Origin: Burkholderia sp.
Lineage (GTDB): Bacteria > Pseudomonadota > Gammaproteobacteria > Burkholderiales > Burkholderiaceae
Reading direction: 5' to 3'
Assembly (NCBI GenBank): GCA_040946965.1
Contig: JAYFRU010000001.1
Location: 74 to 64,073, forward strand
DNA length: 64,000 nucleotides
Part shown: piece by piece, positions 1 through 64,000 of the stretch
Layout: the number at the start of each line of letters is the position of its first letter
How positions within the stretch are numbered: position 1 is the stretch's first letter
Translations under genes and position numbers: made by a program
The notes under the pieces: model-generated
The model's database searches: none
Told to the model about the DNA's origin: nothing
Seen by the model: only the letters and a program-made list of their open reading frames with translations

Positions 1-81
1 CCCTCTCGATGCTTTCGGGTTCGTACACAGTCGCGCCAGGAATTTTACGAATCGGCCATAATTTTCAAATTACAAAATCCT

Positions 82-303
82 TTAAATAACTTTCTCAGGA
101 TCCTCAAGAAAACAATTCGACTCATAAAAATAATGGAAACAATCTCGGGATGCGAGATTATGAATGATGTCGATTTTGTCAATAAACAGATTGAGTAAGA
201 TATTTGGATGCAGAGCAAGATATTCGATGTCTGCAATGATTGTCAGTGGCTTGAAATCCTGGAAAGCCACGCGGGGTAAGGCTTTCTGTTTGATTTGCAT
301 CAT
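82..303 (-). CDS. hypothetical small protein (73 aa); weak call
   Basis: ORF-track entry 82..303(-), MMQIKQKALPRVAFQDFKPLTIIADIEYLALHPNILL... Its amino-acid composition is protein-like (not Arg/Ala/Pro shadow) and it lies in the AT-rich flank, divergent from the megasynthase operon. There is no clear Shine-Dalgarno upstream of ATG 303 and no recognisable motif. It overlaps alternative ORFs 45..236(-) and 179..424(-). Confidence 0.2.
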   Translation of the reverse strand: MMQIKQKALPRVAFQDFKPLTIIADIEYLALHPNILLNLFIDKIDIIHNLASRDCFHYFYESNCFLEDPEKVI

Positions 304-861
304 ATTTCATGCATGAGCGCCAAGCATATATATGCATGATCAGTCCAGCCCCCGATGTTCCTGCGTACCGGATTTGACGGACAGACAATCCCTGCAATCG
401 ATGATTAAATAAGCCTGCATGCAAGTTGTCGAGAAATCGATTGAATCAGAGATCTCGAATAGGTCCAACCAATCACAGTTTCAGCTCACGAGAAAAAAGC
501 TTCGTGGATATCAGTGCGGCATTCCCGACTAATCGACAGGCATCGAAACGAGTCAAGCCAGGCGGTCGAATGCTCGATTTGCCGACTCGTTTTGCCAAGT
601 CCGCTGCCATGAAGCGTTGATCGTTGCTAGCAAGGGCGTGATGCCCGGTTCGCGCAAATGCTGCCCGGTCTGGCGTCGTTTTGCAGTCCTCAGTTGCCGA
701 TATGAAATGAGTTGATCGATTGGCGCGCAATAGTCGTGCGCCGTGTAGGCAAAGGCATGCCGAGGTGCAGGCGGCATGCGGAATTCCGGTAGTTCTTTTA
801 CGGATCCGAGACTCGGCGCCGGTGCTAGGTGTCGTCTCGCGAGCTTGAGGAGCGTTGCCCC
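304..861. promoter_or_regulatory. AT-rich divergent intergenic / leader region upstream of the megasynthase operon (promoter not resolved)
   Basis: No convincing ORF. Hand count gives about 41% G+C over 1-420 (about 32% over 61-240), against a very GC-rich remainder. Perfect palindromes are TCATGCATGA 307-316, GCATATATATGC 324-335 and TGCATGCA 416-423. The GAGGAG ribosome-binding site at 847-852 lies 9 nt before ATG 862. I could not place a confident -35/-10 pair. Confidence 0.35.
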
Positions 862-3800
862 ATGCAGTCAGTCAGCCCGATCGGTGAGACGAAAAAGGCA
901 TTGCGCCTGTTGCAGGAACTGGTTGGATGCGAGCTGGGCATGCCCGCGCACGAGGTACCCGTGGAGTCGGACTACCTCAGCATGGGGTTCAGTTCGCGAG
1001 GCTTGATCGGCTTGATCCAGCAATTGGGCAGCCTGTTGCAGACGAAGCTGAGCCCCTCGGTGCTGTTCGACTATCGGACGCTGACGGAATTTGCTGGCTA
1101 CCTGGCCGAACATCATGCGCGGCGGCTGGCGGCCATGGAAACGGAGCAGGGCGCTTGCGCGAGCCAGGGCACGCACGACGCGCCATGCGCCGTGGCACCG
1201 CTGAACGAAGCGCAGCGCGGGCTGTGGTTCCTGCAGAAGAGCCATCCCCGGATGGCGGCCTACAACGTCCCGCTGTGCCTTCGGCTTTCGTCGCGCGTGT
1301 CGCGCGAGCGCATGCGCGAAGCCGGTGCGTGGCTGCTGCGTCGCTGGCCCATGCTCGGCGCCTCGGTGCGACGCGTGGACGGGCGGCTCGTCATGCAGGC
1401 GCAGCCGGGGCGCGAGCTTGCCTGGCACGAACACCACGCGAGCGACTGGAGCGAGGCGCAGCGGCTGAGCTGGCTGGGCGAGCGGCTGGCCGCGCCCTTC
1501 GACCTCGATAGCGGGCCGCTGCTGCGCGCCTGCTGGCTGGGCGGCGAGGCGGACGGCGGAAGCCGGCTGTTGCTGGTGATTCACCACCTCGTGATCGATG
1601 CGGTATCGGTTGGCGTCCTGCTGGCGGGCCTGCGCAAGACCTACGAGGATCTGGAAGCCGGGCGCAGCCTCGACGGCGCGATGGACGGCAGCGCCTATGG
1701 TGCCTTCGCCGCAGCGGAAGCCGGGCGACTGAGCGGCGCCGATGGCGCGGCTTGCCTCGGTTACTGGCGCGAACAGCTGGCGGACGCGCCGAGCAATCTC
1801 GGTCTGCCGCTGGATCGCGCGCGCGGCGCGGCGCCGAGCTTCCAGGGACGCACGCTGCGGCGCGAACTGCCGCCGGCGTTGAGCGAGTCCCTGCGGGCCT
1901 ACACCGAGCGGCATCGCGTGTATCCGTCCACCTTGCTGCTGGCGGTGTTCCAGGGCTTGCTGAGCCGCCACGCCGGACGCGACGAGGTGGTGGTCGGCAT
2001 GGCCATGGACGAGCGCGATGCGGCCAGCGCCGGGTTGGTGGGCATGTTCGTGAACATGCTGCCGATGCGCGCGCGTGGGCTTGGCCGGCGCGGTTTCGGT
2101 GAGGAGGTGCAGGCCCTGCAACGGCAGCTCGTCGATGCGATGGCACATGCCTATCCGTTCCCCGCGCTGGTGCGCGAGCTGGGCTTGAGCGGCGGAGACG
2201 CCTCGCCCTTGTTCCAGGCCGCGTTTCTCTATCAGGACACGCTCGATATCGACGCGCTTGCCGAGGTGGAGGACTGGACCTGGGAGGAAGCGCTTTACCA
2301 GGAAGGCGAATACGAGCTGGTGCTGGAGGTGCGCAGCGGCCGGCAAGGTCATGCGCTGTATTTCAAATACGATCCCAGCTTGTGGGACGAAAGCACGATC
2401 GAGCGTTGGTTGGGGCATTACCTGCATCTGCTCGAGGGCGTGCTGGCCGATCCGCAACGGCGGCTGGGCGAGCACGAATTGCGCGGCGAGCAGGAGCTTG
2501 CTCAGTTGGCTGCGTGGCAAGGCGAGGCGCGGGATTGGGCGCTGACGCCGGTGCCGGCCTTGTTCGCGCGTCAGGCAGCAGTCGATGCCCAAGCCTGGGC
2601 GGTGAGCGACTCGCAGCAGCGCTGGCGCTACGCGGAGCTGGCGGCCCACAGTGCGTCGATAGCCCAGCGCTTGCGCGCGCAAGGATTCGGCGCGGGTTTG
2701 ATCGTGGGTGTCTGCCAAGGCCGCAGCCCGTGGCTGCTGGCGAGCCTGCTGGGAATCTGGCAGGCGGGCGCGGCTTACGTGCCGCTCGATCCGGCGTACC
2801 CGGCCGAGCGCCTGCGCTACATGCTGGAGGACAGCGGCGCGGGCGTGGTGCTGAGCGATGCCGAGCATCTGTCGCAGGTTCAAGCGCTGGCAGGATCGCT
2901 GCCGGCATGGGCGGCGGATGAACCATGGTCAACGCCCTCGACGCTGGCATCCCTGCCCACGCCGCAGTCGCAAGACCTAGCCTATGTGCTCTACACCTCG
3001 GGTAGCACCGGGCGTCCGAAGGGCGTTCGCATCAGCCACGGCGCGCTGAGCAATTTCCTGCAATCGATGGCCGAGACGCCTGGGCTGAAGGCCGGCGATC
3101 GCTTGTTGGCCGTCACCACGATCAGCTTCGACATCGCGGGCCTCGAACTCTACCTGCCGCTGATCGGCGGCGGCGAATGCGTGCTGTGCCCGGCAGAGGT
3201 CTCGCGCGACGGCCGGCGCCTGAAGGCGGAGGTCGAGTGGGTGCGCCCGAACCTCATGCAGGCGACGCCGGCAACGTGGTCGATGCTGTTCCATGCGGGT
3301 TGGCGCAACACGGAAAGACTGAAGGTGCTGTGCGGCGGTGAAGCGCTGCCGGCGCGCCTGAAGCAGCGTTTCGACGAAATCGGCACGACGGTCTGGAACC
3401 TATACGGCCCGACCGAAACGACGATCTGGTCGACGCTGGCGAAGCTCGATGCCAAGGAGTCGATCCATATCGGGCAGCCGATCGCCAACACCCAGGCCTA
3501 TGTGCTGGACGAAGCCGGCCGTGAGCAGCCGATCGGCATCGAAGGCGAGCTGTATCTGGGCGGCGCGGGGCTGGCACAGGGTTACCACGGCCAACCGGAA
3601 CGCACGTCCCAGGCTTTCGTCGATCACGCACTCGGCAGGCTCTATAAAACCGGCGATCTGGCGCGCTGGCGCGCGGACGGCCGACTGGAACATCGCGGCC
3701 GCTCGGACCAGCAGGTGAAGGTGAACGGCCACCGCGTGGAACCGGGCGAGATCGAGGCGGTGCTGGAACAATCGGGCTTGGTGAAACAGGCGGCGGTGGT

Positions 3801-6800
3801 ATTGCGCGAAGGCGCGCACGGTTCACAGCTGGCCGCGTGGTGCGTTCCGATGAATGCAACGCATGGCGACACCTGGCTGGACCCGGTCCAGGTGCAGGCC
3901 TTGCAGGTGCAATTGCGCGATCGCGTACCGGCCTACATGCAGCCGTCGATCTGGCTGGGCACGGCGGGCTTGCCGCAAACGCCGAATGGCAAGATCGACC
4001 GTCAAGCGCTGCGTGCTCGCGCCTTGCCGGCACAAAGCGACGAGAAGGCGTCGCCCAGCGCAACCAGCCGCAGCGCCGTCCGAGCGGAGCTGGAATCGCG
4101 CCTGCTGGCCCTATGGGCCGAGGTGCTGGAGCGTCCCGCTGTTGGACGCGACGAGCGCTTCCTGGAAGCCGGCGGCAACTCGGTGGCGGCGGTGCTGCTG
4201 GCCGAACGCATCCAGGCCGAGTTCGGCCAGGCATTCGGCGTGGCGCAAGTCTTCGCACACACCAACGTCGCCGCCCAGGCCGCCTATCTCGACGAAGTGC
4301 AGTCCTTGTCGAGGCCGGCCGGCGCCGCCGATTCCCCTCGCCAGGAACCCGTTGCATCCGCAACCGATATCGCCGAGGACGCGCTGGCGATCATCGGCAT
4401 CGCCTGCCATTTCCCCGGTGCCGAAGACCATCGCGCGTTTTGGCACAACCTGCGCACCGGCCACGACAGCGCCCGGCTGTTCAGCCCCGAAGCACTGCGC
4501 GCCGCCGGCGTGCCGGAGCGCCTGATCGCCGACCCGCAATACGTGCCGGTGCAATACGGCATCGAGGGCAAGGCCGAGTTCGACGCGGAATTCTTCAACC
4601 TGCCGCCGCGTACCGTGACGCGCATGGACCCGCCGTTCCGGCTGCTGCTGCAGCACGCCTGGGCCGCGATCGAGGACGCCGGCTACACGCCCGAGGCGAT
4701 CCCCGACACGGCCGTCTACATGGCCATCGGCGGCCCCTTGCGGCTGGCCGAACCGACCGAGCCGGGCAGCCCCGGCGATTCCGACGACTACGTGAACTGG
4801 CTGCTGGCCCAGCCCGGCACGGTGGCCACCATGGTCTCCTACCAGCTCGGCCTGCGCGGGCCCAGCTACGCGGTGCACGCGAACTGCTCCTCGTCGCTGG
4901 TGGGCATGCACGCGGCCGCGCAGAGCCTGCGCAGCGGCGAGGTGCGCACCGCGCTGGTGGGCGCGGCCAGCCTGTTCGGCGACGACAGCCTGGGCTACCG
5001 CTACGAGCCGGGCCTGAACTTCGCCAGCGACGGCCGCTGCAAGACATTCGACTCGCGCGCCGACGGCCTGGTGGCCGGCGAGGGCGTGGCCGTGGTGCTG
5101 CTCAAGCGGGCACGCGAGGCGGTGGCCGACGGCGACCACATCCATGCACTGCTGCGCGGTATCGCGGTCAACAACGACGGTGCCGACAAGGCCGGCTTCT
5201 ACGCGCCCAGCGTGCGCGGCCAGTCCGAGGTGATCGAGCAGGCGCTGCGCCAGGCGCGTGTCGATCCGGCCCGGATCGGTTATGTGGAAGCGCACGGCAC
5301 CGGCACGCGGCTCGGCGATCCGATCGAGGTCACCGCGCTCAGCGAAACCTATCGGCGCCATACGCAGGCAACGCAGTATTGCGCGATCGGCTCGGTGAAG
5401 AGCAACCTCGGCCACCTGGACACGGCAGCCGGGCTGGCCGGCTGCATCAAGCTGGCGCTGAGCCTGCAGCATGGCGAGATTCCGCCGACGCTGCACTACC
5501 AGCAGCCGAACCCGGCGATCGATTTCGCGGCTTCGCCGTTCTACGTGGCAGAGCGCCTGCAAGCCTGGCCGCCCGGCCCGCGGCTGGCGGGCTTGAGCGC
5601 CTTCGGCATCGGCGGCACCAATACCCACGCGATCCTCGAGGCCCATCTGGCGGAACCCGTCGAAGCCCCGGCGGACAGCACCCAACTGGTCGTGCTTTCC
5701 GCGCGGACGCAGGAGCGCCTGCACGCCGTCGCGCGGCAGTTGCTCGACCATCTCGACAGTTCCGCTTCCTTGCCGTCGCTGCGCGACCTGGCTTATACGC
5801 TGCAAGTCGGCCGTCGCGGCATGACGCATCGGCTGGCCTTCGTCGCCGACGACATGAGCAGTTTGCAGCGGCAGCTGTCCGATCATCTGGCGGGCCGCAA
5901 GCTCGGCCACGAGGGCGATTGCGATCGCGGCCAGGCCTTGTTGCAGGCCTTCGAGCACGACGGCGACTCGGCTCGCCTGTTCGCGCAGTGGGCCGCCGCA
6001 GGCAAGCTCGACAAGCTGGCCGCGCTGTGGGTGCAGGGCCTTTCCCTGGACTGGGCGCTGCTGCACGGCACCCGCCGCCCGCGCCGGGTCAGCCTGCCCA
6101 CGTACCCGTTCGAGCGCACGCGTCACTGGCTGGAAGCCCCGGCCGTCGCGCCGGCGGCGGAACCGGAACCGCTCGAGCTCGCACCGGAACGCGCCTGGGA
6201 CGGCATGAGCTATCTGCCGCGCTGGGTGGCCACGCCGGTCATCGCGCATGACGGGCAGGCAGCGCCGGCCCCGGCATCGCTGCTCATCGTGGTGCCGGAG
6301 GCTTCCGCGCGTGCCGGCCAGTTGCTCGAATGGTGCGCGCGACGCTGGCCGTCGGCAGCCTTGCGCCTGATCCGCCTCGGCCGGGAAAACCGTCGCCTGG
6401 GCGAGGCGGAACACGTCTGCGACAGCTTCGACGACGGCCAGGCCTTGAGCGAAGCGCTGCAGGAAGGCAGCTGGCCCGACAGCGTGGTGTTCCTCGCCGA
6501 TGTCGATACCAGCGCGGAGGCGGCCTCGAACTGGCCGGGCCGCCCGGCATCGGCCGAAGCACAGTTGTTGCGCGTGCAACGAGCCCTGAACCAGGGCCAG
6601 GCCAGGCAGCGCACCGATTTCTACCTGGTGACGATCGAAGCCGACGCCGGCGGCGCGTCGGCAGGCGGCGGCCTGAGCGGCCTCGCCTACGCCATGGCGC
6701 AGGGCGATCACCGCCTGCGGCTGCGCCACCTGAGCCTGGACGTCGAGGCGTGGTCGGCATCCAGCTGGTGGGAACTTTGGGCCGAGCCGGCCAGCGAACG

Positions 6801-9800
6801 CGGTGAGCGCGTGCGCTTCAGCGGCGGCGAGCGTTGGCGGCAACGCTTCGAGCGCCTCGATTGGGGCAGCCTGCGCGACGGCGGGCTCAAGCAGGGCGGC
6901 GTCTATCTGATTGCCGGCGGCAGCGGTACGCTGGGCACGGCGATCAGCCGCTACCTGATCAAACGCTATCGAGCGCGGGTGATCTGGCTGGGCCGCAGCC
7001 GCGCCGATGCGCCGGAACTGGCCGCGCGCCTGCAAGCGTTGGCGGCGGGCGAGCTGGGGCCCAGCTATCTCCAGGCCGATCTCACCGACGCCGGCGCGGT
7101 GCGCGAGGCGGTCGCCCGGGCCAGGCAGATCCATGGCCGGATCGACGGCGCGATCTTCTCGGCCATGCAGCGCGGCGCGGATGCGCCCGCCGAGCGCTGG
7201 TGCCCGGCCGCGCTGGCCGAGGCCGTGGCCGTCAAGGCGCTCGGCGCGCGGCATTTCCATCAGGCCCTGCTCGGCGAATCGCTGGACTTCCTCTGCTATT
7301 ACTCCTCGGTGCAGTCCTTCGCCTTCCTCAGCGCCAGGGATTCGGCGGCTTATGCCGTCGGCGTGGCCGCAGCCGATCGCTACGTGCAATCGATCCGTGC
7401 CCGGTCACCGTTCCGCGTCGGCCTGATCCACTGGGGCTACTGGCAGGCGTCGCTGGCCGGCACGGCGCTCGAGCAGGACCTGGCCCGACACTTCACCGGC
7501 ATCCGCGCCGACGAGGCCTGCGTGTTCTTCGAGCGTTTCGTGGCGGCCCTGGGGCAGGGCGTGCTCGACCAGGCGATCTGCCTGAAGGCGTCCGATAGCG
7601 TGCGCGAGCTGATGCCCAGCACGGCCGCCGACGTGGTGGCGGTCGCCACCACCGGCACGCCGTCCTTCCTCGACCGCTTCGATGCCGCCGCGCTGCGCTC
7701 CACCGTGGCGCCGCCGGATTGGACCGAGCTGGACCGGCGCCTGCGCGGTCTGTTGTGCGCGCAACTGCGCCGCCTGGGCCTGTTCGACCAAGCCGGCGTG
7801 AGCTGGGACGGTGAGCAGTTGCGCCGCAAGCTCGGCGTGATCGACGACTACCGGCGCTGGTGGGACGAGTGCTGCACCGAGATGCTGGAGGCCGAAGGCT
7901 GGATCCGCACGCGGCAGGGGCGCGTCGAGTTGCTGCGCGCCCTGAGCCTGGAGCAGGCCGATGCGCTATGGCAGGACTGGGAGCGCGACAAGGCCGGCTA
8001 TCTGCAGGACCCGCAGCTGCGTGCCGCGCTGCTGCTGGTGGAGGACTGCCTGCGCCAGCTGCCCGAGGTGCTGCTCGGCCGGACCTCGGCCACCTCGGTG
8101 ATCTTCGCCGACGGCAGCATGAGCAAGGTGGCCGGTCTCTACCAGGGCACCGCCTGGACCGATTCCTTCAATCACCAGGTGGCGGTCACCGTCGAGGCCT
8201 ATGTGCGCCATCGCCTGGCCGCCGATCCGCAGGCGCGCCTGCGCGTGCTCGAGGTCGGCGCCGGCACCGGCGGCACCACCGCCAAGGTGTTGCCGCGCCT
8301 GGCCGCGATCGGCGCGCCGATGCTCGAATACTGCTACACCGATCTGTCCGAGGCCTTCCTGGCCCAGGCGCGCGAGCGTCATCTGGCCGAGCATCCCTAT
8401 CTGCGTACCTGTCGTTGCGACATCGAACGGCCGCTGGCCGGGCAGGGCATCGTGCCCGGCAGCTACGACATCGTGATCGCCACCAACTGCCTGCATGCCA
8501 CGCACGACATCCGCGCCACCTTGCGCCACGTGCAGGCTGCGCTGCGCTGCCATGGCGTGCTGATCGCCAACGAGGGCGTCAGCAAGAGCCTGCTGGGCAC
8601 CCTGACCTTCGGCCTGCTGGAAGGCTGGTGGCTCTACGACGATCCGCAACTGCGCATTGCCGGTTCGCCGCTGCTGGACAGCGCACATTGGCAGGCCTTG
8701 CTGGTCGAGGCCGGGATGCATCCGGTCTGCCTGGATGGCCCAGGCCGCGAATTGCAGCAGGTGTGGGTGGCGCAGAGCCATGGACTGATGCGCCCGGGCG
8801 GGGCGGCTTCGGTGCCGGTGCTGCCGCCGGCCGCGCCGTCGTCGGCAGCGGCGGGCGAAGCCGTTGCCGCGCCGGCTGCATCCTCGCCCGCCGCGTCCGG
8901 CGAAGCCGCATCCCAGGCGGCGATCGCCGCCGAGATCCGCGCCTGCCTGGCCGATACCTTGAAGCGCGAGGCTGCGGGCCTGGCCGACGAGACGGCCTTC
9001 TCGGACTACGGCATCGACTCGATCCTCAGCGTCGCCCTGGTCAAGCGGCTCAACCAGCGCCTGGGCATCCAGCTCGGCCAGACGGTGATCTACGACTACA
9101 GCACCATCGCCGCGCTGAGCCGCCACGTGCTCGAGCAGCACGGCGCGCCCGCGCCGGCGGTGCAGCCTCGGCCCGAGGCGGCGCCGTCGCCGGAGCCGGC
9201 CAGGGTCGAGACGCCGACCTCATCGGCCGCGCCGATGCTTGCGCCCGCAACGGTATCGGCCGCGACGCCGCCTGCCGTCGAGGCATCCCGGCCCGCGTCC
9301 ATCGCCGTGATCGGCATGGCTCTCCAGGTGCCCGACGCCGAGGATGCCGACACCTTCTGGGCGAACCTGATGAATGGCCGCGACAGCATCCGCGAGCTGC
9401 CCGAGGCCTATGGCCGCCCGGCGCGCGGCGCCCGCCCGCGCGGCGGCGCACTGGCTGGCCGCGACCGGTTCGACGCCGCCTTCTTCGGCCTGTCGCCCGA
9501 GGAGGCCGCCGGTATGAGCCCGGCGCAACGGCTGGTGCTGGAGGAAGGCTGGAAGGCGCTGGAGGATGCCGGCCACGACCCGCACAGCCTGCGCGGCAGC
9601 CGCACTGCGGTGTTCGTCGGCGCGGAGCCGAGCGGCTTTTTCCAGGGCTCCTTCTCGGGGTCGTCCGAGGCGATCATCGCCTCGCGGCTGTCCTATCAGC
9701 TGGACCTGAAGGGGCCGGCCCTGGTGGTCAACACCGGCTGCTCGTCGGGCGCGATGGCCATCCACCTGGCCTGCGAGAGCCTGCGCCGCAGCGAGACGCA

Positions 9801-11520
9801 ACTCGCGCTGGCCGGCGGCGTGGCTGCGGCACTGAGCGTCGAGGGGCTGGGGCATCTGGCCGATGCCGGCATGCTGTCGCCGCAAGGGCGCTGCCTGAGC
9901 TTCGAGGCGTCCGGCGACGGCATGGTGCTGTCCGAGGCGGTGGGCATGCTGGTGCTCAAGCGCCTGGACCAGGCCATCGCCGACGGCGACGCGATCCACG
10001 GCGTGATCGAGGCCAGCGGCAGCAACCAGGACGGCACCAGCAACGGCATCACGGCGCCCAACGGCCGGGCCCAGGAAGCCCTGCTGAGCGAGACCTGGGC
10101 GCGCCACGGGATCGTGCCGGAGCAGATCAGCCATTTCGAGGTGCACGGCACCGGCACCTCGCTGGGCGATGCGGTGGAGGGCAATGCCATCGGCCGCGCC
10201 TTCGCTCGCGTGAGCGCGCGCCGGGGTTTCTGCGTGATCGGCACCAGCAAGACGCATATCGGGCATACCGGTGCCGCGTCCGGCGCGGTGGGCCTGATCA
10301 AGCTGCTGCTGTCGCTGCGCCATCGCCAGTTGCCGGGGCTGCTGCATTTCGAGCAGGCGAACCCGCTGATCGACTGGAACGGCTCGGCGCTGCGCCTGCC
10401 CGAGGCCACCCTGGCCTGGGACGGCGAGCCCGGCGTGCCGCGTCATGCCGGGCTGAACGCCTTCGGCCACAGCGGCACCAATGTACACATGGTGGTGCGC
10501 GAGTACGGCCCGGGCCCGGGCGATCGGCTCGGCCCGCAACTGCTGGAGCAAGCGCAGGAAGTGCTGCTGCCCTTGTCCGCTGCGGGCGCGCCGCAACTGG
10601 CGCGGATCGCGCGGCGCCTGCTCGACTGCCTCGACGAGGCCGGACATGGCCAGCCGCAGCCGAGCCTGGCCGAGCTGGCCTATACCTGCCAGACCGGCCG
10701 CAGCGCGCTGGCCGAGCGCGCCGTGCTCAAGGCGGCCGATCGGCAGCAACTGCGTGCGCTGCTGCTGGCGCTGGCCGAGCAACGGCCGATGGCCGGCTTG
10801 TGGCGCGGCAGCGTCGATCCGGAACTGACGCCGGCCGCGGCGGCGGAGCGAGCCGGGCTCGACGAGCTGGCGCAATCCTGGGTGCAAGGCGCCGAGGTGG
10901 ACTGGCTGAAGCTCTACGGGCCGGTGCGGCCGCAGCGTTGCCACCTGCCGGCTTACCCGTTCGATCGACAGCATTTCCCCTGGCACCTGGCCTCGTCGCT
11001 GCCGGGCCCGGCAAGCGAGCAGCCGGTGCCGGTACAAGCAGCCGAGCCCGTCGCCGCTGCCGCGCCGGCCTGGCGCTTCGAGCTGGCCGCCAGCGCCGAG
11101 GCCGGTGCCGATCCCCGTGCCAAGGCCACGCAATGGCTGCGCCGCTGGCTGGCGATGCGCCTGCAGCGGCCGGTGCCGGCACTCAACCCGCAGCTCAGCT
11201 ATCGCGAACTCGGCCTCACCTCGCTGGGCCTGGTGGCCTTGAGCGAGGAACTGAGCCGGCTGCTCGGCGTCGCGGTGCTGCCTTCGGTGCTGTTCGAATA
11301 CCCGAGCATCGCGCGCCTGGCCGAGTACCTAGCCGAGCAGCATGCCCCGCTCCTGTTGCGCGTGCAGTTGATCCCGCTGACGGACCAGGACGCGCCCGAC
11401 ACCGGCGCGCCGGCCGAGGCGAGCGCGCCCGATCGCGTGCTGTCCGTGCTGCAAGCCTATCGAAACGGTGCTCTGGACCATGCCCAGGCGCGCGCCCTGC
11501 TGGCCGAGCCCACGCCATGA
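862..11520 (+). CDS. hybrid NRPS / trans-AT PKS megasynthase: carrier-C-A(Gly)-PCP-KS-KR-cMT-ACP-KS-carrier
   Basis: Tracked ORF is 829..11520. ATG 862 is preceded by GAGGAG 847-852; GTG 829 (right after in-frame TAG 826-828) is the alternative start. Domains read from motifs: carrier (DYLSMGFSS, Ser 994-996); C (HHLVID 1582-1599); A (DLAYVLYTSGSTGRPKG 2974-3024, PNGKIDR 3982-4002); PCP (FLEAGGNS, Ser 4180-4182); KS1 (~4381-5640, Cys 4885-4887 in HANCSSS, His 5293-5295 in EAHGTGT, NLGH); ~165-aa flanking linker ending LPTYPFERTRHW; KR (GGVYLIAGGSGTLG 6895-6936); C-MT (LEVGAGTGG 8248-8274); ACP (DYGIDS, Ser 9019-9021); KS2 (~9295-10503, Cys 9739-9741, EVHGTGT, HIGH); linker; carrier (ELGLTS, Ser 11221-11223); short helical tail. 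No AT domain anywhere. Confidence 0.95.
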   Translation: MQSVSPIGETKKALRLLQELVGCELGMPAHEVPVESDYLSMGFSSRGLIGLIQQLGSLLQTKLSPSVLFDYRTLTEFAGYLAEHHARRLAAMETEQGACASQGTHDAPCAVAPLNEAQRGLWFLQKSHPRMAAYNVPLCLRLSSRVSRERMREAGAWLLRRWPMLGASVRRVDGRLVMQAQPGRELAWHEHHASDWSEAQRLSWLGERLAAPFDLDSGPLLRACWLGGEADGGSRLLLVIHHLVIDAVSVGVLLAGLRKTYEDLEAGRSLDGAMDGSAYGAFAAAEAGRLSGADGAACLGYWREQLADAPSNLGLPLDRARGAAPSFQGRTLRRELPPALSESLRAYTERHRVYPSTLLLAVFQGLLSRHAGRDEVVVGMAMDERDAASAGLVGMFVNMLPMRARGLGRRGFGEEVQALQRQLVDAMAHAYPFPALVRELGLSGGDASPLFQAAFLYQDTLDIDALAEVEDWTWEEALYQEGEYELVLEVRSGRQGHALYFKYDPSLWDESTIERWLGHYLHLLEGVLADPQRRLGEHELRGEQELAQLAAWQGEARDWALTPVPALFARQAAVDAQAWAVSDSQQRWRYAELAAHSASIAQRLRAQGFGAGLIVGVCQGRSPWLLASLLGIWQAGAAYVPLDPAYPAERLRYMLEDSGAGVVLSDAEHLSQVQALAGSLPAWAADEPWSTPSTLASLPTPQSQDLAYVLYTSGSTGRPKGVRISHGALSNFLQSMAETPGLKAGDRLLAVTTISFDIAGLELYLPLIGGGECVLCPAEVSRDGRRLKAEVEWVRPNLMQATPATWSMLFHAGWRNTERLKVLCGGEALPARLKQRFDEIGTTVWNLYGPTETTIWSTLAKLDAKESIHIGQPIANTQAYVLDEAGREQPIGIEGELYLGGAGLAQGYHGQPERTSQAFVDHALGRLYKTGDLARWRADGRLEHRGRSDQQVKVNGHRVEPGEIEAVLEQSGLVKQAAVVLREGAHGSQLAAWCVPMNATHGDTWLDPVQVQALQVQLRDRVPAYMQPSIWLGTAGLPQTPNGKIDRQALRARALPAQSDEKASPSATSRSAVRAELESRLLALWAEVLERPAVGRDERFLEAGGNSVAAVLLAERIQAEFGQAFGVAQVFAHTNVAAQAAYLDEVQSLSRPAGAADSPRQEPVASATDIAEDALAIIGIACHFPGAEDHRAFWHNLRTGHDSARLFSPEALRAAGVPERLIADPQYVPVQYGIEGKAEFDAEFFNLPPRTVTRMDPPFRLLLQHAWAAIEDAGYTPEAIPDTAVYMAIGGPLRLAEPTEPGSPGDSDDYVNWLLAQPGTVATMVSYQLGLRGPSYAVHANCSSSLVGMHAAAQSLRSGEVRTALVGAASLFGDDSLGYRYEPGLNFASDGRCKTFDSRADGLVAGEGVAVVLLKRAREAVADGDHIHALLRGIAVNNDGADKAGFYAPSVRGQSEVIEQALRQARVDPARIGYVEAHGTGTRLGDPIEVTALSETYRRHTQATQYCAIGSVKSNLGHLDTAAGLAGCIKLALSLQHGEIPPTLHYQQPNPAIDFAASPFYVAERLQAWPPGPRLAGLSAFGIGGTNTHAILEAHLAEPVEAPADSTQLVVLSARTQERLHAVARQLLDHLDSSASLPSLRDLAYTLQVGRRGMTHRLAFVADDMSSLQRQLSDHLAGRKLGHEGDCDRGQALLQAFEHDGDSARLFAQWAAAGKLDKLAALWVQGLSLDWALLHGTRRPRRVSLPTYPFERTRHWLEAPAVAPAAEPEPLELAPERAWDGMSYLPRWVATPVIAHDGQAAPAPASLLIVVPEASARAGQLLEWCARRWPSAALRLIRLGRENRRLGEAEHVCDSFDDGQALSEALQEGSWPDSVVFLADVDTSAEAASNWPGRPASAEAQLLRVQRALNQGQARQRTDFYLVTIEADAGGASAGGGLSGLAYAMAQGDHRLRLRHLSLDVEAWSASSWWELWAEPASERGERVRFSGGERWRQRFERLDWGSLRDGGLKQGGVYLIAGGSGTLGTAISRYLIKRYRARVIWLGRSRADAPELAARLQALAAGELGPSYLQADLTDAGAVREAVARARQIHGRIDGAIFSAMQRGADAPAERWCPAALAEAVAVKALGARHFHQALLGESLDFLCYYSSVQSFAFLSARDSAAYAVGVAAADRYVQSIRARSPFRVGLIHWGYWQASLAGTALEQDLARHFTGIRADEACVFFERFVAALGQGVLDQAICLKASDSVRELMPSTAADVVAVATTGTPSFLDRFDAAALRSTVAPPDWTELDRRLRGLLCAQLRRLGLFDQAGVSWDGEQLRRKLGVIDDYRRWWDECCTEMLEAEGWIRTRQGRVELLRALSLEQADALWQDWERDKAGYLQDPQLRAALLLVEDCLRQLPEVLLGRTSATSVIFADGSMSKVAGLYQGTAWTDSFNHQVAVTVEAYVRHRLAADPQARLRVLEVGAGTGGTTAKVLPRLAAIGAPMLEYCYTDLSEAFLAQARERHLAEHPYLRTCRCDIERPLAGQGIVPGSYDIVIATNCLHATHDIRATLRHVQAALRCHGVLIANEGVSKSLLGTLTFGLLEGWWLYDDPQLRIAGSPLLDSAHWQALLVEAGMHPVCLDGPGRELQQVWVAQSHGLMRPGGAASVPVLPPAAPSSAAAGEAVAAPAASSPAASGEAASQAAIAAEIRACLADTLKREAAGLADETAFSDYGIDSILSVALVKRLNQRLGIQLGQTVIYDYSTIAALSRHVLEQHGAPAPAVQPRPEAAPSPEPARVETPTSSAAPMLAPATVSAATPPAVEASRPASIAVIGMALQVPDAEDADTFWANLMNGRDSIRELPEAYGRPARGARPRGGALAGRDRFDAAFFGLSPEEAAGMSPAQRLVLEEGWKALEDAGHDPHSLRGSRTAVFVGAEPSGFFQGSFSGSSEAIIASRLSYQLDLKGPALVVNTGCSSGAMAIHLACESLRRSETQLALAGGVAAALSVEGLGHLADAGMLSPQGRCLSFEASGDGMVLSEAVGMLVLKRLDQAIADGDAIHGVIEASGSNQDGTSNGITAPNGRAQEALLSETWARHGIVPEQISHFEVHGTGTSLGDAVEGNAIGRAFARVSARRGFCVIGTSKTHIGHTGAASGAVGLIKLLLSLRHRQLPGLLHFEQANPLIDWNGSALRLPEATLAWDGEPGVPRHAGLNAFGHSGTNVHMVVREYGPGPGDRLGPQLLEQAQEVLLPLSAAGAPQLARIARRLLDCLDEAGHGQPQPSLAELAYTCQTGRSALAERAVLKAADRQQLRALLLALAEQRPMAGLWRGSVDPELTPAAAAERAGLDELAQSWVQGAEVDWLKLYGPVRPQRCHLPAYPFDRQHFPWHLASSLPGPASEQPVPVQAAEPVAAAAPAWRFELAASAEAGADPRAKATQWLRRWLAMRLQRPVPALNPQLSYRELGLTSLGLVALSEELSRLLGVAVLPSVLFEYPSIARLAEYLAEQHAPLLLRVQLIPLTDQDAPDTGAPAEASAPDRVLSVLQAYRNGALDHAQARALLAEPTP
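1761..5643 (+). repeat. copy 1 of a 3,883-bp near-perfect direct repeat (C-domain C-terminal part + A(Gly) + PCP + KS core)
   Basis: This tract is identical to 12221-16103 at a fixed offset of 10,460 nt in every stretch I compared. One difference was seen (C5625 vs T16085, synonymous Thr). The encoded proteins are identical from YWREQLADAPSNLG to GGTNTHAILEA. All spurious six-frame ORFs recur at the same offset. Confidence 0.97.
2551..4002 (+). other. adenylation domain, predicted glycine-specific (copy 1)
   Basis: Specificity-conferring residues were read by alignment to the GrsA-PheA numbering. They are D (3130), I (3133), L (3142) in SFDIAGLE; Q (3259) in MQATP; L (3328) and G (3334) in VLCGGE; L (3400) in NLYGPTE; I (3424), W (3427) in TTIWS; and K (3991) in PNGKIDR. 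Together these give DILQLGLIWK, the canonical Gly code. Confidence 0.85.
8070..8790 (+). other. C-methyltransferase domain 1 (core)
   Basis: The SAM-binding motif is RVLEVGAGTGGTT (LEVGAGTGG 8248-8274), followed by VIATNCLHAT...GVLIANE...FGLLEGWW. Position is KR-MT-ACP. Confidence 0.85.
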
Positions 11521-14500
11521 AGACCGTCATGACCCTGGATCAAATCATCGCCTTGTACGAAGCCGGAAAACTCAGCGGCGATCAGGTAAGCGAAGCATTC
11601 GCGCGCTTGTCTTCCCGGTCCGCCGGCGCCGCCGAGACGGGCGCTGCGGTGGATATCGAACTGAGTGAAACCCAGCGCGGCCTGTGGTCCCTGCAAAAGG
11701 CCCATCCGCAGCTGGCGGCCTACAACGTGCCGCTTTGCCTGCGCCTGCCGGCGGATCTCGATCGCGAACGTTTCCTGCGCGCCTGCGCCAGCCTGCTGGA
11801 ACGCTGGCCGGTGCTAGGCGCCTCGGTCGAGCAGCGCGAGGGGCCGCTGCGCCTGCACGCGGCGTCGGCTGCGAGCCTGTCGCTGGAGCAGGGCGATGGT
11901 TCGGCGTTGAGCGAGAGCGAACGTCTCGACTGGCTGCGTGAACGTATCGAGCAGCCTTTCGACCTGGCCAAGGGGCCGCTGCTGCGCGCGCATTGGCTGG
12001 AGGGTGCCGGCGGCGGCGAAAGCCTGTTCCTGCTAGTGGTCCATCACCTGGTGATCGACGGCGCCTCGGTGGGTTTGCTGTTGGCCGGGCTGCACGAGGC
12101 CTATCGCGCTCTGGAGAGCGGCGAGGCCCTGCCGGCCACCGGCGGCAGCGACGGCTACGCGGGTTTCGTTCGCGCCGAGCGCGCGCGCCTGCAAGGCGAT
12201 GAAGCGTCGAGGCGCCTGGCTTACTGGCGCGAACAGCTGGCGGACGCGCCGAGCAATCTCGGTCTGCCGCTGGATCGCGCGCGCGGCGCGGCGCCGAGCT
12301 TCCAGGGACGCACGCTGCGGCGCGAACTGCCGCCGGCGTTGAGCGAGTCCCTGCGGGCCTACACCGAGCGGCATCGCGTGTATCCGTCCACCTTGCTGCT
12401 GGCGGTGTTCCAGGGCTTGCTGAGCCGCCACGCCGGACGCGACGAGGTGGTGGTCGGCATGGCCATGGACGAGCGCGATGCGGCCAGCGCCGGGTTGGTG
12501 GGCATGTTCGTGAACATGCTGCCGATGCGCGCGCGTGGGCTTGGCCGGCGCGGTTTCGGTGAGGAGGTGCAGGCCCTGCAACGGCAGCTCGTCGATGCGA
12601 TGGCACATGCCTATCCGTTCCCCGCGCTGGTGCGCGAGCTGGGCTTGAGCGGCGGAGACGCCTCGCCCTTGTTCCAGGCCGCGTTTCTCTATCAGGACAC
12701 GCTCGATATCGACGCGCTTGCCGAGGTGGAGGACTGGACCTGGGAGGAAGCGCTTTACCAGGAAGGCGAATACGAGCTGGTGCTGGAGGTGCGCAGCGGC
12801 CGGCAAGGTCATGCGCTGTATTTCAAATACGATCCCAGCTTGTGGGACGAAAGCACGATCGAGCGTTGGTTGGGGCATTACCTGCATCTGCTCGAGGGCG
12901 TGCTGGCCGATCCGCAACGGCGGCTGGGCGAGCACGAATTGCGCGGCGAGCAGGAGCTTGCTCAGTTGGCTGCGTGGCAAGGCGAGGCGCGGGATTGGGC
13001 GCTGACGCCGGTGCCGGCCTTGTTCGCGCGTCAGGCAGCAGTCGATGCCCAAGCCTGGGCGGTGAGCGACTCGCAGCAGCGCTGGCGCTACGCGGAGCTG
13101 GCGGCCCACAGTGCGTCGATAGCCCAGCGCTTGCGCGCGCAAGGATTCGGCGCGGGTTTGATCGTGGGTGTCTGCCAAGGCCGCAGCCCGTGGCTGCTGG
13201 CGAGCCTGCTGGGAATCTGGCAGGCGGGCGCGGCTTACGTGCCGCTCGATCCGGCGTACCCGGCCGAGCGCCTGCGCTACATGCTGGAGGACAGCGGCGC
13301 GGGCGTGGTGCTGAGCGATGCCGAGCATCTGTCGCAGGTTCAAGCGCTGGCAGGATCGCTGCCGGCATGGGCGGCGGATGAACCATGGTCAACGCCCTCG
13401 ACGCTGGCATCCCTGCCCACGCCGCAGTCGCAAGACCTAGCCTATGTGCTCTACACCTCGGGTAGCACCGGGCGTCCGAAGGGCGTTCGCATCAGCCACG
13501 GCGCGCTGAGCAATTTCCTGCAATCGATGGCCGAGACGCCTGGGCTGAAGGCCGGCGATCGCTTGTTGGCCGTCACCACGATCAGCTTCGACATCGCGGG
13601 CCTCGAACTCTACCTGCCGCTGATCGGCGGCGGCGAATGCGTGCTGTGCCCGGCAGAGGTCTCGCGCGACGGCCGGCGCCTGAAGGCGGAGGTCGAGTGG
13701 GTGCGCCCGAACCTCATGCAGGCGACGCCGGCAACGTGGTCGATGCTGTTCCATGCGGGTTGGCGCAACACGGAAAGACTGAAGGTGCTGTGCGGCGGTG
13801 AAGCGCTGCCGGCGCGCCTGAAGCAGCGTTTCGACGAAATCGGCACGACGGTCTGGAACCTATACGGCCCGACCGAAACGACGATCTGGTCGACGCTGGC
13901 GAAGCTCGATGCCAAGGAGTCGATCCATATCGGGCAGCCGATCGCCAACACCCAGGCCTATGTGCTGGACGAAGCCGGCCGTGAGCAGCCGATCGGCATC
14001 GAAGGCGAGCTGTATCTGGGCGGCGCGGGGCTGGCACAGGGTTACCACGGCCAACCGGAACGCACGTCCCAGGCTTTCGTCGATCACGCACTCGGCAGGC
14101 TCTATAAAACCGGCGATCTGGCGCGCTGGCGCGCGGACGGCCGACTGGAACATCGCGGCCGCTCGGACCAGCAGGTGAAGGTGAACGGCCACCGCGTGGA
14201 ACCGGGCGAGATCGAGGCGGTGCTGGAACAATCGGGCTTGGTGAAACAGGCGGCGGTGGTATTGCGCGAAGGCGCGCACGGTTCACAGCTGGCCGCGTGG
14301 TGCGTTCCGATGAATGCAACGCATGGCGACACCTGGCTGGACCCGGTCCAGGTGCAGGCCTTGCAGGTGCAATTGCGCGATCGCGTACCGGCCTACATGC
14401 AGCCGTCGATCTGGCTGGGCACGGCGGGCTTGCCGCAAACGCCGAATGGCAAGATCGACCGTCAAGCGCTGCGTGCTCGCGCCTTGCCGGCACAAAGCGA

Positions 14501-17500
14501 CGAGAAGGCGTCGCCCAGCGCAACCAGCCGCAGCGCCGTCCGAGCGGAGCTGGAATCGCGCCTGCTGGCCCTATGGGCCGAGGTGCTGGAGCGTCCCGCT
14601 GTTGGACGCGACGAGCGCTTCCTGGAAGCCGGCGGCAACTCGGTGGCGGCGGTGCTGCTGGCCGAACGCATCCAGGCCGAGTTCGGCCAGGCATTCGGCG
14701 TGGCGCAAGTCTTCGCACACACCAACGTCGCCGCCCAGGCCGCCTATCTCGACGAAGTGCAGTCCTTGTCGAGGCCGGCCGGCGCCGCCGATTCCCCTCG
14801 CCAGGAACCCGTTGCATCCGCAACCGATATCGCCGAGGACGCGCTGGCGATCATCGGCATCGCCTGCCATTTCCCCGGTGCCGAAGACCATCGCGCGTTT
14901 TGGCACAACCTGCGCACCGGCCACGACAGCGCCCGGCTGTTCAGCCCCGAAGCACTGCGCGCCGCCGGCGTGCCGGAGCGCCTGATCGCCGACCCGCAAT
15001 ACGTGCCGGTGCAATACGGCATCGAGGGCAAGGCCGAGTTCGACGCGGAATTCTTCAACCTGCCGCCGCGTACCGTGACGCGCATGGACCCGCCGTTCCG
15101 GCTGCTGCTGCAGCACGCCTGGGCCGCGATCGAGGACGCCGGCTACACGCCCGAGGCGATCCCCGACACGGCCGTCTACATGGCCATCGGCGGCCCCTTG
15201 CGGCTGGCCGAACCGACCGAGCCGGGCAGCCCCGGCGATTCCGACGACTACGTGAACTGGCTGCTGGCCCAGCCCGGCACGGTGGCCACCATGGTCTCCT
15301 ACCAGCTCGGCCTGCGCGGGCCCAGCTACGCGGTGCACGCGAACTGCTCCTCGTCGCTGGTGGGCATGCACGCGGCCGCGCAGAGCCTGCGCAGCGGCGA
15401 GGTGCGCACCGCGCTGGTGGGCGCGGCCAGCCTGTTCGGCGACGACAGCCTGGGCTACCGCTACGAGCCGGGCCTGAACTTCGCCAGCGACGGCCGCTGC
15501 AAGACATTCGACTCGCGCGCCGACGGCCTGGTGGCCGGCGAGGGCGTGGCCGTGGTGCTGCTCAAGCGGGCACGCGAGGCGGTGGCCGACGGCGACCACA
15601 TCCATGCACTGCTGCGCGGTATCGCGGTCAACAACGACGGTGCCGACAAGGCCGGCTTCTACGCGCCCAGCGTGCGCGGCCAGTCCGAGGTGATCGAGCA
15701 GGCGCTGCGCCAGGCGCGTGTCGATCCGGCCCGGATCGGTTATGTGGAAGCGCACGGCACCGGCACGCGGCTCGGCGATCCGATCGAGGTCACCGCGCTC
15801 AGCGAAACCTATCGGCGCCATACGCAGGCAACGCAGTATTGCGCGATCGGCTCGGTGAAGAGCAACCTCGGCCACCTGGACACGGCAGCCGGGCTGGCCG
15901 GCTGCATCAAGCTGGCGCTGAGCCTGCAGCATGGCGAGATTCCGCCGACGCTGCACTACCAGCAGCCGAACCCGGCGATCGATTTCGCGGCTTCGCCGTT
16001 CTACGTGGCAGAGCGCCTGCAAGCCTGGCCGCCCGGCCCGCGGCTGGCGGGCTTGAGCGCCTTCGGCATCGGCGGCACCAATACTCACGCGATCCTCGAG
16101 GCCTTGCCGCCGTCGGCCGCCCGGCAGCAGCCCGAGCCGGCGCCCGGCGTGCCGCAGGTGCTGCCGCTGTCGGCCATGCAGGCCGACAGCCTGCCGGTGT
16201 ACGCGCGCCGCCTCGCGGCGTTCCTGCGCGGCCCGCATGCGGCCTCGTTGCGCCTGGCCGACCTCGCCTACACGCTGCAGACCGGCCGCCGCGCGATGCG
16301 GGTGCGTTGCGCCTTCGTGGCGGAAACGCTCGATCAATTGCTGGCGGCGCTGGACGACTATACGGGCACGACTGACGCCGACACGTCTTCCCAACCCGCG
16401 CCTGCGGACGGCTGGCAACTGCAGCGCGACGCCCATGCGCTAGCCACCGCCTGGCGGCGGGGCGAGCCGATCGACTGGCACGCGCTGCAGGCGGGCGCGC
16501 CGTGGTTGGCGCGCCGCGTCAGCCTGCCGACCTATCCGTTCGCGCCGAAGCGCTGGCCGCGCGCGGCAGTGCGGGTCGCGCCCGGCGCGCAGGCTGCCGT
16601 GCTGCACCCGCTGCTGCACGGCAATACCAGCGACTTCGCCGGTCATCGCTACAGTTCGCGCTTCGGCGGCGAGGAATTCTTCCTGGCCGATCACGTGATG
16701 GGCGGCCACAAGGTCCTGCCGGGCGTGGCGCATCTGGAAATGGCGCGCGCGGCATTTGCCCAGGCGATCGCCGCTGCATCCATCCCGCTCGAATTGCACG
16801 ACGTGGTGTGGGTCCGCCCGGTCGGCGTGGATGCGGCGCTGGAGGTCCACACGGCCTTACGTCCGCAAGCGGACGGTTCGGCCGAGTTCGAGATCTACAG
16901 CCAGCCCGACGCGGCGGGCGAACGCATCGTGCACAGCCAGGGCCGCGCGATGCCGGTCGAGCCGGCCGCCATCGAGCCGCTGGCGCTGGATGCGCTGCGC
17001 GGACGAATCACGCAGGCGCATCGCGATGCCGCCGCCTATTACCGCGATTTCGAACAGGGCGGTGCCAGCTACGGCCCGGCCTTCCGCGCGCTGGAGCAGC
17101 TCTGGCTGGGCGACGGCCAAGGGCTCGCCAGGCTGGTGCTGCCGGCGGCCCTGCACCAAGGCGCCGAGCGCTACGGCCTGCATCCGAGCCTGCTCGACGC
17201 GGCCGTGCAGGCTGCCTTCATCGGCGTCGACGCGTTGCGCGCCGCCGCTGGTGCAGCGGGCGCGAAGCAGGGCGGCTCCCTGCCGTTCGAACTCAAGCGC
17301 ATGCAATTGTTGGTGCCTTGCCGGCCCGTCATGTGGGCCTGGGTGCGCTATACCCAGGGCCTCAGCGCGGACGACCGGGTGCAGCGCATGGACGTCGATC
17401 TGTGCGACGAGCAAGGGCGCATCTGCGTGCGCCTGCATGGCCTGGCCCGCCTGGCCGCGCCGGCGGCGAAACCCGTCGCCCCATCGTCACGGCTGCAACT

Positions 17501-29500: not shown

Positions 29501-30610
29501 TGATGCCGGCATCGACGTGGCCAGCATCGGCTACATCGAGACCCACGGCACCGGCACCGCGCTGGGCGATCCGATCGAGATCAACGGGTTGAAGGCGGCC
29601 TTCGAGGACCTGCGCCACGAGGCCGGCGCGCTCGCGCCGGTGCCGGAGAGCTGCGCGCTGGGCTCGGTGAAGACCAACATCGGCCACCTGGAGCTGGCCG
29701 CCGGCGTGGCCGGCGTGATCAAGGTGGTGCTGCAGCTGCGCCATCGCACGCTGGCCCGCAGCCTGCATGCCGAGGAGCCGAACCCCTACATCCGCCTGGA
29801 GGGCAGCCCCTTCCACCTGCTGGGCGACACGCGGCCCTGGCCGGCGTCTCGGGACGCCGCTGGCCGAGCGCTGCCGCGCCGCGCCGGCGTCAGCTCGTTC
29901 GGCTTCGGCGGGGTCAACGCGCACGTGCTGCTGGAGGAATACGTGGGCGCGAGCGCCGCCTCGCCCGCGAGCGAGGTGGGGCCGCACCTGCTGGTGCTAT
30001 CGGCCCGGCAGCCGGCGCGCCTGGTCGAGCAGGCCGCGCAGCTCGCGGCCTTCCTGCGCGACGCGGCGCGGCGGCCCGCGCTGGCCGAGCTGATCCACAC
30101 GCTGCAGGTGGGCCGCGACGCGATGGAGGAGCGTGCCGCCTTCCTGGTGGCCGACTACCCGGAACTGGTGCAGCGCCTCGACGAGTTCGTCGCTGGCCGC
30201 GCCGGCGCCTGGCTGCATCGCGGCCGCGCGCGCCACGGCAGCGAGGCCGCCGCGCTGTTCGACAACGAGCACGAGCAGCGCGAGGCGGTGCGCGGCTGGC
30301 TGGCCCAGGGCCGCCACGACAAGCTGCTGCGGCTCTGGACGCAGGGGCTGGAAGTCGACTGGCGGGTGCTGCATGCCGGCCCGCCGCCGCGCCGCGCGCA
30401 CCTGCCCACCTATGCCTTCGCGCGCGAGCGCTACTGGCCGCAGCCGGCGCATCCGGCGGCCCGCCCCGAGGCCGAGACGCGCGTGAGCCCGCCGATGCAG
30501 GCGGCCAACGAAGACGAGCTGGACCGGCACAGCGCCTTGCTGGACCAGCTCATCCACCGACAGATCAGCGCCGACGAAGCGGTTCGTCTGGCGCGCCGTC
30601 AGGAACAGTC

Positions 30611-30614: not shown

Positions 30615-50874
<20,260 letters not shown>

Positions 50875-50878
<4 letters not shown>

Positions 50879-57318: not shown

Positions 57319-57460
57319 GGCGCGCCGCGCGCCAAGCCAGAGAAAGCGGCGGACGCCACGCGCGGCCGCCCGATGCATGTGACTCATCTGCTTTATCTGC
57401 CTGATTTGCCCGGCGGCTGCCGTGTTCGCCGCCCTTGCCCGTTGAAGCTAGGAGAATGCA

Positions 57461-64000
<6,540 letters not shown>

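Follow-up and report, generated by a model that had tools for sequence, protein, structure and literature searches.

A Long Direct Repeat in lgaA and lgaB

We analyzed a 64,000-nucleotide (nt) stretch of DNA from Burkholderia sp. (GenBank assembly GCA_040946965.1, contig JAYFRU010000001.1, positions 74 to 64,073 of the forward strand), hereafter the window, which is the lagriamide (lga) trans-acyltransferase (trans-AT) polyketide synthase/nonribosomal peptide synthetase (PKS/NRPS) cluster; lagriamide is an antifungal from a beetle symbiont. According to Pfam, its first two genes, lgaA and lgaB, both open with a condensation-adenylation-carrier-ketosynthase set (C-A-T-KS), and within this set they carry two copies (A and B) of a 3.9-kb direct repeat, called the tract below. 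The features of this region are as follows:

829 to 11520, + strand: lgaA, hybrid NRPS/trans-AT PKS gene (naming from PMC6018673)
11517 to 30614, + strand: lgaB, hybrid NRPS/trans-AT PKS gene
1761 to 5643, + strand: repeat copy A, in lgaA (amino acids 312-1605), defined by identity and boundary comparison and described by Pfam, specificity code, and ketosynthase sequence
12221 to 16103, + strand: repeat copy B, in lgaB (amino acids 236-1529), with the domain content of copy A
5625, + strand: sole difference between the copies, C at this position and T at 16085, in a synonymous threonine codon
1201 to 1760, + strand: left flank A, in the condensation domain of LgaA, whose N-terminal, donor-side part (with HHLVID) it forms; groups by position across genomes
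11661 to 12220, + strand: left flank B, in the condensation domain of LgaB, whose N-terminal part it forms
5644 to 6171, + strand: right flank A, the LgaA post-ketosynthase flanking subdomain/linker, up to LPTYPF (amino acid 1756)
16104 to 16571, + strand: right flank B, the LgaB post-ketosynthase flanking subdomain/linker, up to LPTYPF (amino acid 1670)
5644 to 12220, + strand: unique spacer between the copies, with the LgaA KR-MT-carrier-KS domains, the stop of lgaA, the start of lgaB, and the N-terminal portion of LgaB's condensation domain
4716 to 5030, + strand: ketosynthase active-site segment of copy A, ~100 amino acids around the catalytic cysteine, B-type allele (...HANCSSSL...)
15176 to 15490, + strand: ketosynthase active-site segment of copy B, B-type allele, as in copy A of the window

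Base-by-base comparison of the two copies, which lie at an offset of 10,460 nt, aligns 3,883 nt with 1 mismatch (a divergence of 0.026%), placed 18 nt short of the right tract boundary, where ACC in copy A corresponds to ACT in copy B; an earlier, sequence-only reading of this DNA had given the same coordinates, offset, and single synonymous difference. The exact-match run has its left limit at position 1761 and its right limit at 5643, reading frames are intact in both copies, and the codon phase of the tract is equal in lgaA and lgaB. Over ~560 nt to the left, the flanks are homologous and diverged (48-75% nt identity per 100-nt window; 52% amino acid identity between LgaA and LgaB), and to the right nt similarity is lost immediately (27-40% per 100 nt; 37% amino acid identity in a gapped alignment), in agreement with that reading, which had also described the post-ketosynthase linkers as poorly alignable. 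Self-BLAST of the window makes the A/B pair stand out as unique: the next-best paralogous pair in the 64 kb reaches 77% identity, and chance or ordinary domain conservation therefore cannot account for the identity of the two copies. The second most similar long paralogous pair (49052-50808 and 50995-52751; 76% over 1.8 kb) consists of two adjoining ketosynthases, the last in lgaC and the first in lgaD, and shows ordinary divergence with no homogenization.

Domain Content and Ends of the Tract

The tract covers the acceptor-side part of the condensation domain, the C-A linker, the adenylation and carrier domains, and the complete ketosynthase. The specificity code of its adenylation domain, read by alignment to a GrsA fragment, is DILQLGLIWK, which we take to be a glycine code. 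This is consistent with the literature, where glycine is predicted for both adenylation domains.

The left end of the tract falls at a conserved "YW" in the condensation domain, ~59 residues past the catalytic HH. In the TycC PCP-C structure 2JGP, the residue aligned to LgaA Tyr312 is chain index 275, author residue 277, which lies 12 residues beyond helix alpha5 (I253-F265), and this helix adjoins the linker between the donor and acceptor subdomains according to the paper that describes the XUC unit (bioRxiv 10.1101/354670). The right end coincides with ...GGTNTHAILEA (amino acid 1605 in LgaA, 1529 in LgaB), the NAHVILEE-type motif that closes the ketosynthase, and lies 141-151 residues ahead of LPTYPF.

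Concerted Evolution in Three Lineages

The window is collinear over 21 kb with the lga loci of two Burkholderia metagenome-assembled genomes (MAGs), LhG_1 from Lagria hirta (87.7% nt identity) and Loki_2 from L. okinawana (86.5%), and the spacer between the copies is likewise collinear with both at 87-88% nt; the next closest locus is that of Paraburkholderia acidicola ATCC 31363 (~79% nt). The sequence-only reading had suggested comparing the two modules with their counterparts in orthologous clusters. They are not diverged there: the copies are ~100% identical in LhG_1 and Loki_2 too.

In a six-way alignment of copies A and B from the window, LhG_1, and Loki_2, the distance between A and B inside the tract is 0.000 within each of the three genomes, and the distances between genomes are 0.140 (window and LhG_1), 0.143 (window and Loki_2), and 0.058 (LhG_1 and Loki_2), making the latter two sister lineages relative to the window. 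Both flanks behave in the opposite way, with same-position copies 0.07-0.16 apart across genomes and A and B 0.38-0.48 apart (on the left, 0.38-0.43 between A and B compared with 0.09-0.16 between the A copies of different genomes). Paralogues are thus closest within a genome in the tract and group by position in the flanks. The site patterns of the tract comprise 2,937 invariant sites, 563 at which the copies agree within each genome and the genomes differ, 0 that separate A from B, and 15 others. Between the window and LhG_1, we count 290 synonymous and 140 nonsynonymous codon differences and 6 indel codons, common to both copies in all but ~7 copy-specific codons. Tract length, from the first full codon, is 3,882, 3,900, and 3,897 nt in the window, LhG_1, and Loki_2, and is equal between the copies of each genome.

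The end points are also kept. The last left-flank mismatch falls at window-equivalent 1760, 1753, and 1756 in the three genomes, and on the right the mismatches start at 5644 in the window and at ~5640-5645 in LhG_1, with A/B identity in Loki_2 collapsing in the same 150-nt alignment window. The rare differences between A and B sit near the tract ends (5625 in the window; 1865, 5444, 5520, 5528, and 5640 in LhG_1), as would be expected of conversion tracts whose end points vary.

Parallel synonymous changes and indels in both copies of three genomes are the mark of concerted evolution, and we observe this pattern directly in all three lineages, with fixed boundaries. We consider it highly probable that the glycine-module segment of lgaA and lgaB has undergone long-running concerted evolution through recurrent gene conversion. 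In line with the sequence-only reading, gene conversion between two homologous glycine modules that already existed has left its footprint in the abrupt change from diverged to identical sequence. Its dating needs revision: the latest conversion is indeed recent, and the idea of one very recent event fails on the same tract being homogenized in LhG_1 and Loki_2, ~14% away. Nor does its exclusion of an old duplication stand, since the same tract with the same boundaries is homogenized in three lineages, so that both the paired architecture and the homogenized state are old. At least one conversion per lineage after the lineage splits is required, and only the latest in each lineage is recent.

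A single, very recent conversion or module replacement peculiar to this genome would explain its 1 mismatch in 3,883 nt and sharp boundaries, and the last conversion here must be recent, given 0.026% between A and B against 14% between lineages. We nevertheless regard such a single event as very unlikely in view of the homogenized tracts with the same end points in LhG_1 and Loki_2, the 563 genome-specific sites, the need for at least one conversion in each lineage, and the patch described below, which points to independent overwriting. That extreme purifying selection, with no exchange of sequence, accounts for the identity of two old copies has practically negligible probability. It would fit the intact frames and shared chemistry of two segments that both appear functional from their sequence, but the tract is not conserved between lineages (14% at the nt level, with the 290 synonymous and 140 nonsynonymous codon differences and the indels), and selection of this kind cannot yield hundreds of parallel synonymous changes and indels; the 563 sites contradict it.

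A Probable Relic Ketosynthase Patch and the P. acidicola Cluster

The copies of Loki_2 differ in one patch, at window-equivalent 4716 to ~5100, which we likewise observe directly. A wider stretch of copy A (4599-5499 of the Loki_2 locus; window-equivalent 4716-5616) is unlike Loki_2 copy B and the other lga copies, and like the copy-A ketosynthase of P. acidicola. At window-equivalent 4719-5018, the identity of Loki_2 copy A is 80-84% to the copy-A ketosynthase of P. acidicola and only 45-62% to its own copy B; for P. acidicola copy A, identity to the other lga copies across the same ~300 nt is only 50-79%. The P. acidicola ketosynthase used here is linked to copy-A-specific downstream sequence on an Illumina contig of that strain (L002; 9,143 nt). 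The patch encodes ~100 residues around the catalytic cysteine and distinguishes two alleles: QTNCSSFL (A-type), found in copy A of both Loki_2 and P. acidicola, and HANCSSSL (B-type), found in both copies of the window. We rejected donation of the B-type patch from elsewhere in the cluster; the other ketosynthases of the window reach at most ~76%, over short stretches only.

In the simplest history, copy A would once have had its own ketosynthase sequence, of which Loki_2 kept a piece, and the copy-A allele would have been overwritten by the B-type independently in the LhG_1 and window lineages, implying transfer from B to A. Alternatively, the A-type patch of Loki_2 may have been reimported from a donor resembling lgb, the P. 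acidicola cluster.

Contig L002 runs from the equivalent of LgaA amino acid 1005 to LgaB amino acid 454 (equivalent to LgaA amino acid 530), so that both of its ends lie inside the equivalent of the lga tract. The part missing between these ends, ~1.4 kb, comprises the end of the condensation domain, the C-A linker, and the adenylation core. The authors who described the P. acidicola cluster report that it was split over several contigs and that MinION reads were needed. The contig ends suggest that lgb may have a homogenized segment too, shorter and centered on the adenylation core, a recombination hotspot of NRPSs in other work (PMC8097286).

Support from an Independent Read Assembly

The sequence-only reading had flagged the repeat as an assembly hazard, and contig ends support this: L002 and a contig of the sequencing run behind the window both end inside or at the repeat, and the P. 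acidicola cluster was resolved with MinION reads. The latter contig (L053, 6,656 nt), from the Logan assembly of run SRR27332970, an independent k=31 assembly of the reads, equals window 5595-12250 at 100% and was the single contig matched by the protein from 5596 to the lgaA stop. Its left end at 5595 (5625 minus 30) was predicted before the look-up; its right end at 12250 (12220 plus 30, 29 nt into copy B, which fits a k=31 graph) was derived afterwards from the contig size. The read graph thus has branch points at the one base specific to copy A and at copy B's left edge, and L053 confirms base 5625, two of the four junctions, and two contexts. A look-up in Logan for the contig downstream of copy B gave no match. 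LgaE and LgaF, like a 6.7-kb contig, match independently assembled Logan contigs at 100%; these come from the same run, which belongs to the Lagriinae study BioProject PRJNA1054523.

An assembly artefact, whether a second copy that is not real or two diverged copies replaced by one sequence pasted twice, would fit the collapse of such repeats in short-read graphs, the ends of L002 and L053 at or in the repeat, and the restriction of A/B differences to ~200 nt from the tract ends, where short reads can phase. We give it very little credence. The repeat has four distinct unique/repeat junction contexts, and L053, the spacer contig, enters it from both sides; the same architecture is present in three separately assembled genomes; two glycine modules are required for lagriamide, and the adenylation domains of both have been reported; and the diverged Loki_2 patch was resolved. 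A k-mer graph would not merge copies that differ by more than ~1-2%, and the true identity of A and B must therefore lie far above the 86% seen between lineages.

Several points weigh against recurrent conversion as the explanation. LhG_1 and Loki_2 are Illumina-only SPAdes MAGs, and the graph of the window's run also collapses the repeat; a collapsed repeat walked twice by a de Bruijn assembler could hide scattered interior differences between A and B, and mismatches confined to the neighborhood of the tract ends are also expected from such an assembly. In Loki_2, placing the relic patch in copy A rests on short-read phasing over ~400 identical bases. The comparison covers three lga lineages and one partial lgb contig, and neither recombination machinery nor recombination events were observed directly here. 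In addition, the symbionts are reported to have many pseudogenized recombination and repair genes, which is awkward beside a very recent conversion.

A Proposed Mechanism of Homogenization

We infer that nonreciprocal homologous recombination (gene conversion) recurrently copies one segment over the other; a mutation in one copy would then be either erased or spread to both. Conversion between direct repeats 10.46 kb apart would be the only simple process that homogenizes the copies yet keeps the unique 6.6-kb spacer, and a crossover instead is predicted to leave an in-frame LgaA/LgaB fusion minus 10,460 nt. Replacing the ketosynthase patch, which is 35% diverged, would need repair synthesis primed from identical sequence on either side. 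Overwriting would be tolerated as neutral because both segments are expected to perform the same chemistry, accepting glycine, forming an amide, and passing a glycyl-terminated chain to the ketosynthase.

Homogenization would halt where the modules are too diverged to pair. On the left, DNA divergence amounts to 38-43% between the donor-side halves upstream, each of which has a different upstream partner; on the right, the stop lies exactly at the ketosynthase end, and the flanking subdomains beyond it are 37% identical in protein. Selection probably keeps these flanks diverged. The LgaA condensation domain is preceded by an N-terminal carrier-like domain in the same protein, and the chain for the LgaB condensation domain has to come from LgaA, whose last ketosynthase has been reported as nonextending (PMC6018673). 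Downstream of the two tract ketosynthases, the sets of reductive and methylation domains assigned by Pfam differ.

Before the LgaA condensation domain, amino acids ~12-110 (862-1150) form a carrier-protein-like stretch (...DYLSMGFSSRGLIGL...). Pfam finds four PP-binding stretches in LgaA, and LgaB has no carrier-like domain ahead of its condensation domain; the N-terminal carrier-like stretch of LgaA may account for the donor-side halves staying different.

The Surrounding Cluster

The large genes of the window lie on the + strand at 829/862-11520, 11517-30614, 30611-50878, and ~50875-54756, followed by a gene for a free-standing acyltransferase, an acyltransferase/enoyl-reductase (AT/ER) gene, and a further PKS gene that runs past the window end. 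The start of lgaA is probably the ATG at 862, and lgaA and lgaB share an ATGA overlap at 11517-11520. Outside the two C-A-T-KS openings, Pfam finds KS/KR/DH/MT/ACP sets without an integrated acyltransferase. This architecture follows the published order, with hybrid lgaA and lgaB, PKS genes lgaC and lgaD, lgaE (trans-AT), lgaF (AT/ER), and the PKS gene lgaG; the gene order and content of lgaA-G and the presence of two glycine adenylation domains are described in PMC6018673.

Downstream, lgaE (trans-AT) occupies 54803-55936 and lgaF, an NMO-type enoyl reductase with a FabD helical insert, 55933-57318, the two sharing an overlap of the ATGA type at 55933-55936; Logan gene calls confirm both starts (54803 and 55933), and a mechanical list of open reading frames (ORFs) puts lgaF too early, at 55534. 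The start codon of lgaG is ambiguous, with many TTG and GTG candidates, and at the lgaG start (57452-57750) Pfam found no GNAT family in the first ~600 residues at E≤1e-5, whereas the published LgaG opens with a GNAT loading domain. Upstream of lgaA, the first ~800 nt of the window are AT-rich (41% GC at 1-500, rising to ~70% by 1000), and positions 1-830 hold no convincing ORF; collinearity with the LhG_1 locus begins already at window position 289. Positions 1-830 are probably a promoter or the island edge of a horizontally acquired cluster.

Exact-protein look-ups of LgaA from starts 829 and 862 returned no record. Window 1-17000 matched only weak Ralstonia ketosynthases in a plasmid collection, with no orthologue, and a metagenome scan gave only distant PKSs (31-59% identity) and no further lga orthologues. 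In a large protein database, the LgaA post-ketosynthase region and its N-terminal 300 amino acids drew 8,000 word candidates each and no scoring match even at E≤1e-20. Since NCBI has relatives on record (P. acidicola and the MAGs), that protein index seems either to lack PKS products that are very large or contig-cut or to have them swamped.

Implications and Comparison with Known Systems

The tract is a clean experiment of nature, and a datable one, for learning what can be swapped within a hybrid NRPS/trans-AT PKS module without loss of function: the part from the acceptor side of the condensation domain through the last ketosynthase residue has been exchanged many times in at least three lineages reported to have the lagriamide cluster, and the donor-side half and the post-ketosynthase subdomain never. 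Domain phylogenies and orthology calls for lgaA and lgaB are distorted within the tract; the published phylogeny of the biosynthetic gene cluster used concatenated lgaA-lgaI alignments. Short-read assemblies of lga clusters are likewise unreliable in the tract. Through the direct repeats, 10.46 kb of the assembly line could also be lost or doubled in frame, which would give shortened or extended lagriamide analogues. A word search of the main texts and supplements of the published lagriamide papers found no mention of the lgaA/lgaB repeat, although such a search cannot prove that it is unreported.

Modules of cis-AT PKSs and of some NRPSs are known to evolve in concert (Medema et al. 2014, PMC4256081; Jenke-Kodama et al. 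2006, PMC1592344). In the rapamycin, FK520, and meridamycin PKSs and the daptomycin and CDA NRPSs, as in lga, paralogous domains within a cluster are closer than same-position domains elsewhere, as a result of internal recombination and gene conversion, which is tolerated where one function can stand in for the other. The lga case differs in involving one pair only, in running continuously for 3.9 kb across an NRPS-to-PKS junction (part of C, A, T, and the whole KS), and in occurring in a proteobacterial trans-AT system, with ~100% identical copies and end points kept in three lineages; for the trans-AT systems of pederin and psymberin, no such branching was observed in the study cited for concerted module evolution.

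Repeats within clusters that are attributed to conversion are common as GRINS (Nivina et al. 2021, PMC8256042), usually at 0.3-1.4 kb. The tract resembles them as a long, highly similar intracluster repeat whose copies are closer within a PKS than between homologous PKSs, and with more than 500 bp at more than 80% identity within one PKS cluster it has the repeat that defines such elements. That it is itself a GRINS, a skew-driven repeat that recodes PKS genes, is most improbable: using the published windowing (150-nt windows/30-nt), we find a mean absolute GC skew of 0.090 and TA skew of 0.101, compared with a threshold of 0.15, skews about equal to those of the rest of the cluster, and a skew correlation of r = 0.23. 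Furthermore, GRINS are reported to be rare in trans-AT PKSs and Proteobacteria, and the tract is much longer than they are, lacks intense nucleotide skews, and includes NRPS domains.

Recombination between modules of the same cluster is likewise known from mcyB and mcyC of microcystin synthetase, with its "Acore hotspot" (Baunach et al. 2021, PMC8097286). The assembly break of P. acidicola, equivalent to amino acids 530-1005, roughly fits units centered on Acore; the lga tract adds the C-A linker, Asub, the carrier, and the ketosynthase, and involves no change of substrate, both modules using glycine.

As in the XUC unit (CAsub-A-T-CDsub; bioRxiv 10.1101/354670), the acceptor-side half of the condensation domain travels with the adenylation and carrier domains, but the left end of the tract lies near, not in, the condensation subdomain linker where that unit has its boundary. 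The unit described for trans-AT PKSs (Mabesoone et al. 2024, PMC11260071) has its boundary at LPTYPFx5W, and the lga tract ends earlier, at the NAHVILEE-type motif; this right end is a recognized post-ketosynthase landmark. The NAHVILEE junction gave nonfunctional chimeras in the oocydin PKS. We suggest, as a possibility we would not yet favor, that the tract is a natural exchange unit bounded by selection, "C(acceptor part)-A-T-KS," which bridges an NRPS module and a trans-AT ketosynthase. If so, one ketosynthase would work with two flanking subdomains (37% identical) and two donor-side condensation halves (52%), and the A-type and B-type active-site segments would be interchangeable in vivo. 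This would counter the rule that trans-AT ketosynthases move together with their flanking subdomain up to LPTYPFx5W, and would provide concrete fusion sites for engineering hybrid NRPS/trans-AT PKSs. The lga tract is probably the product of a well-known process, and an unusually clean, long, and long-lived example of it.

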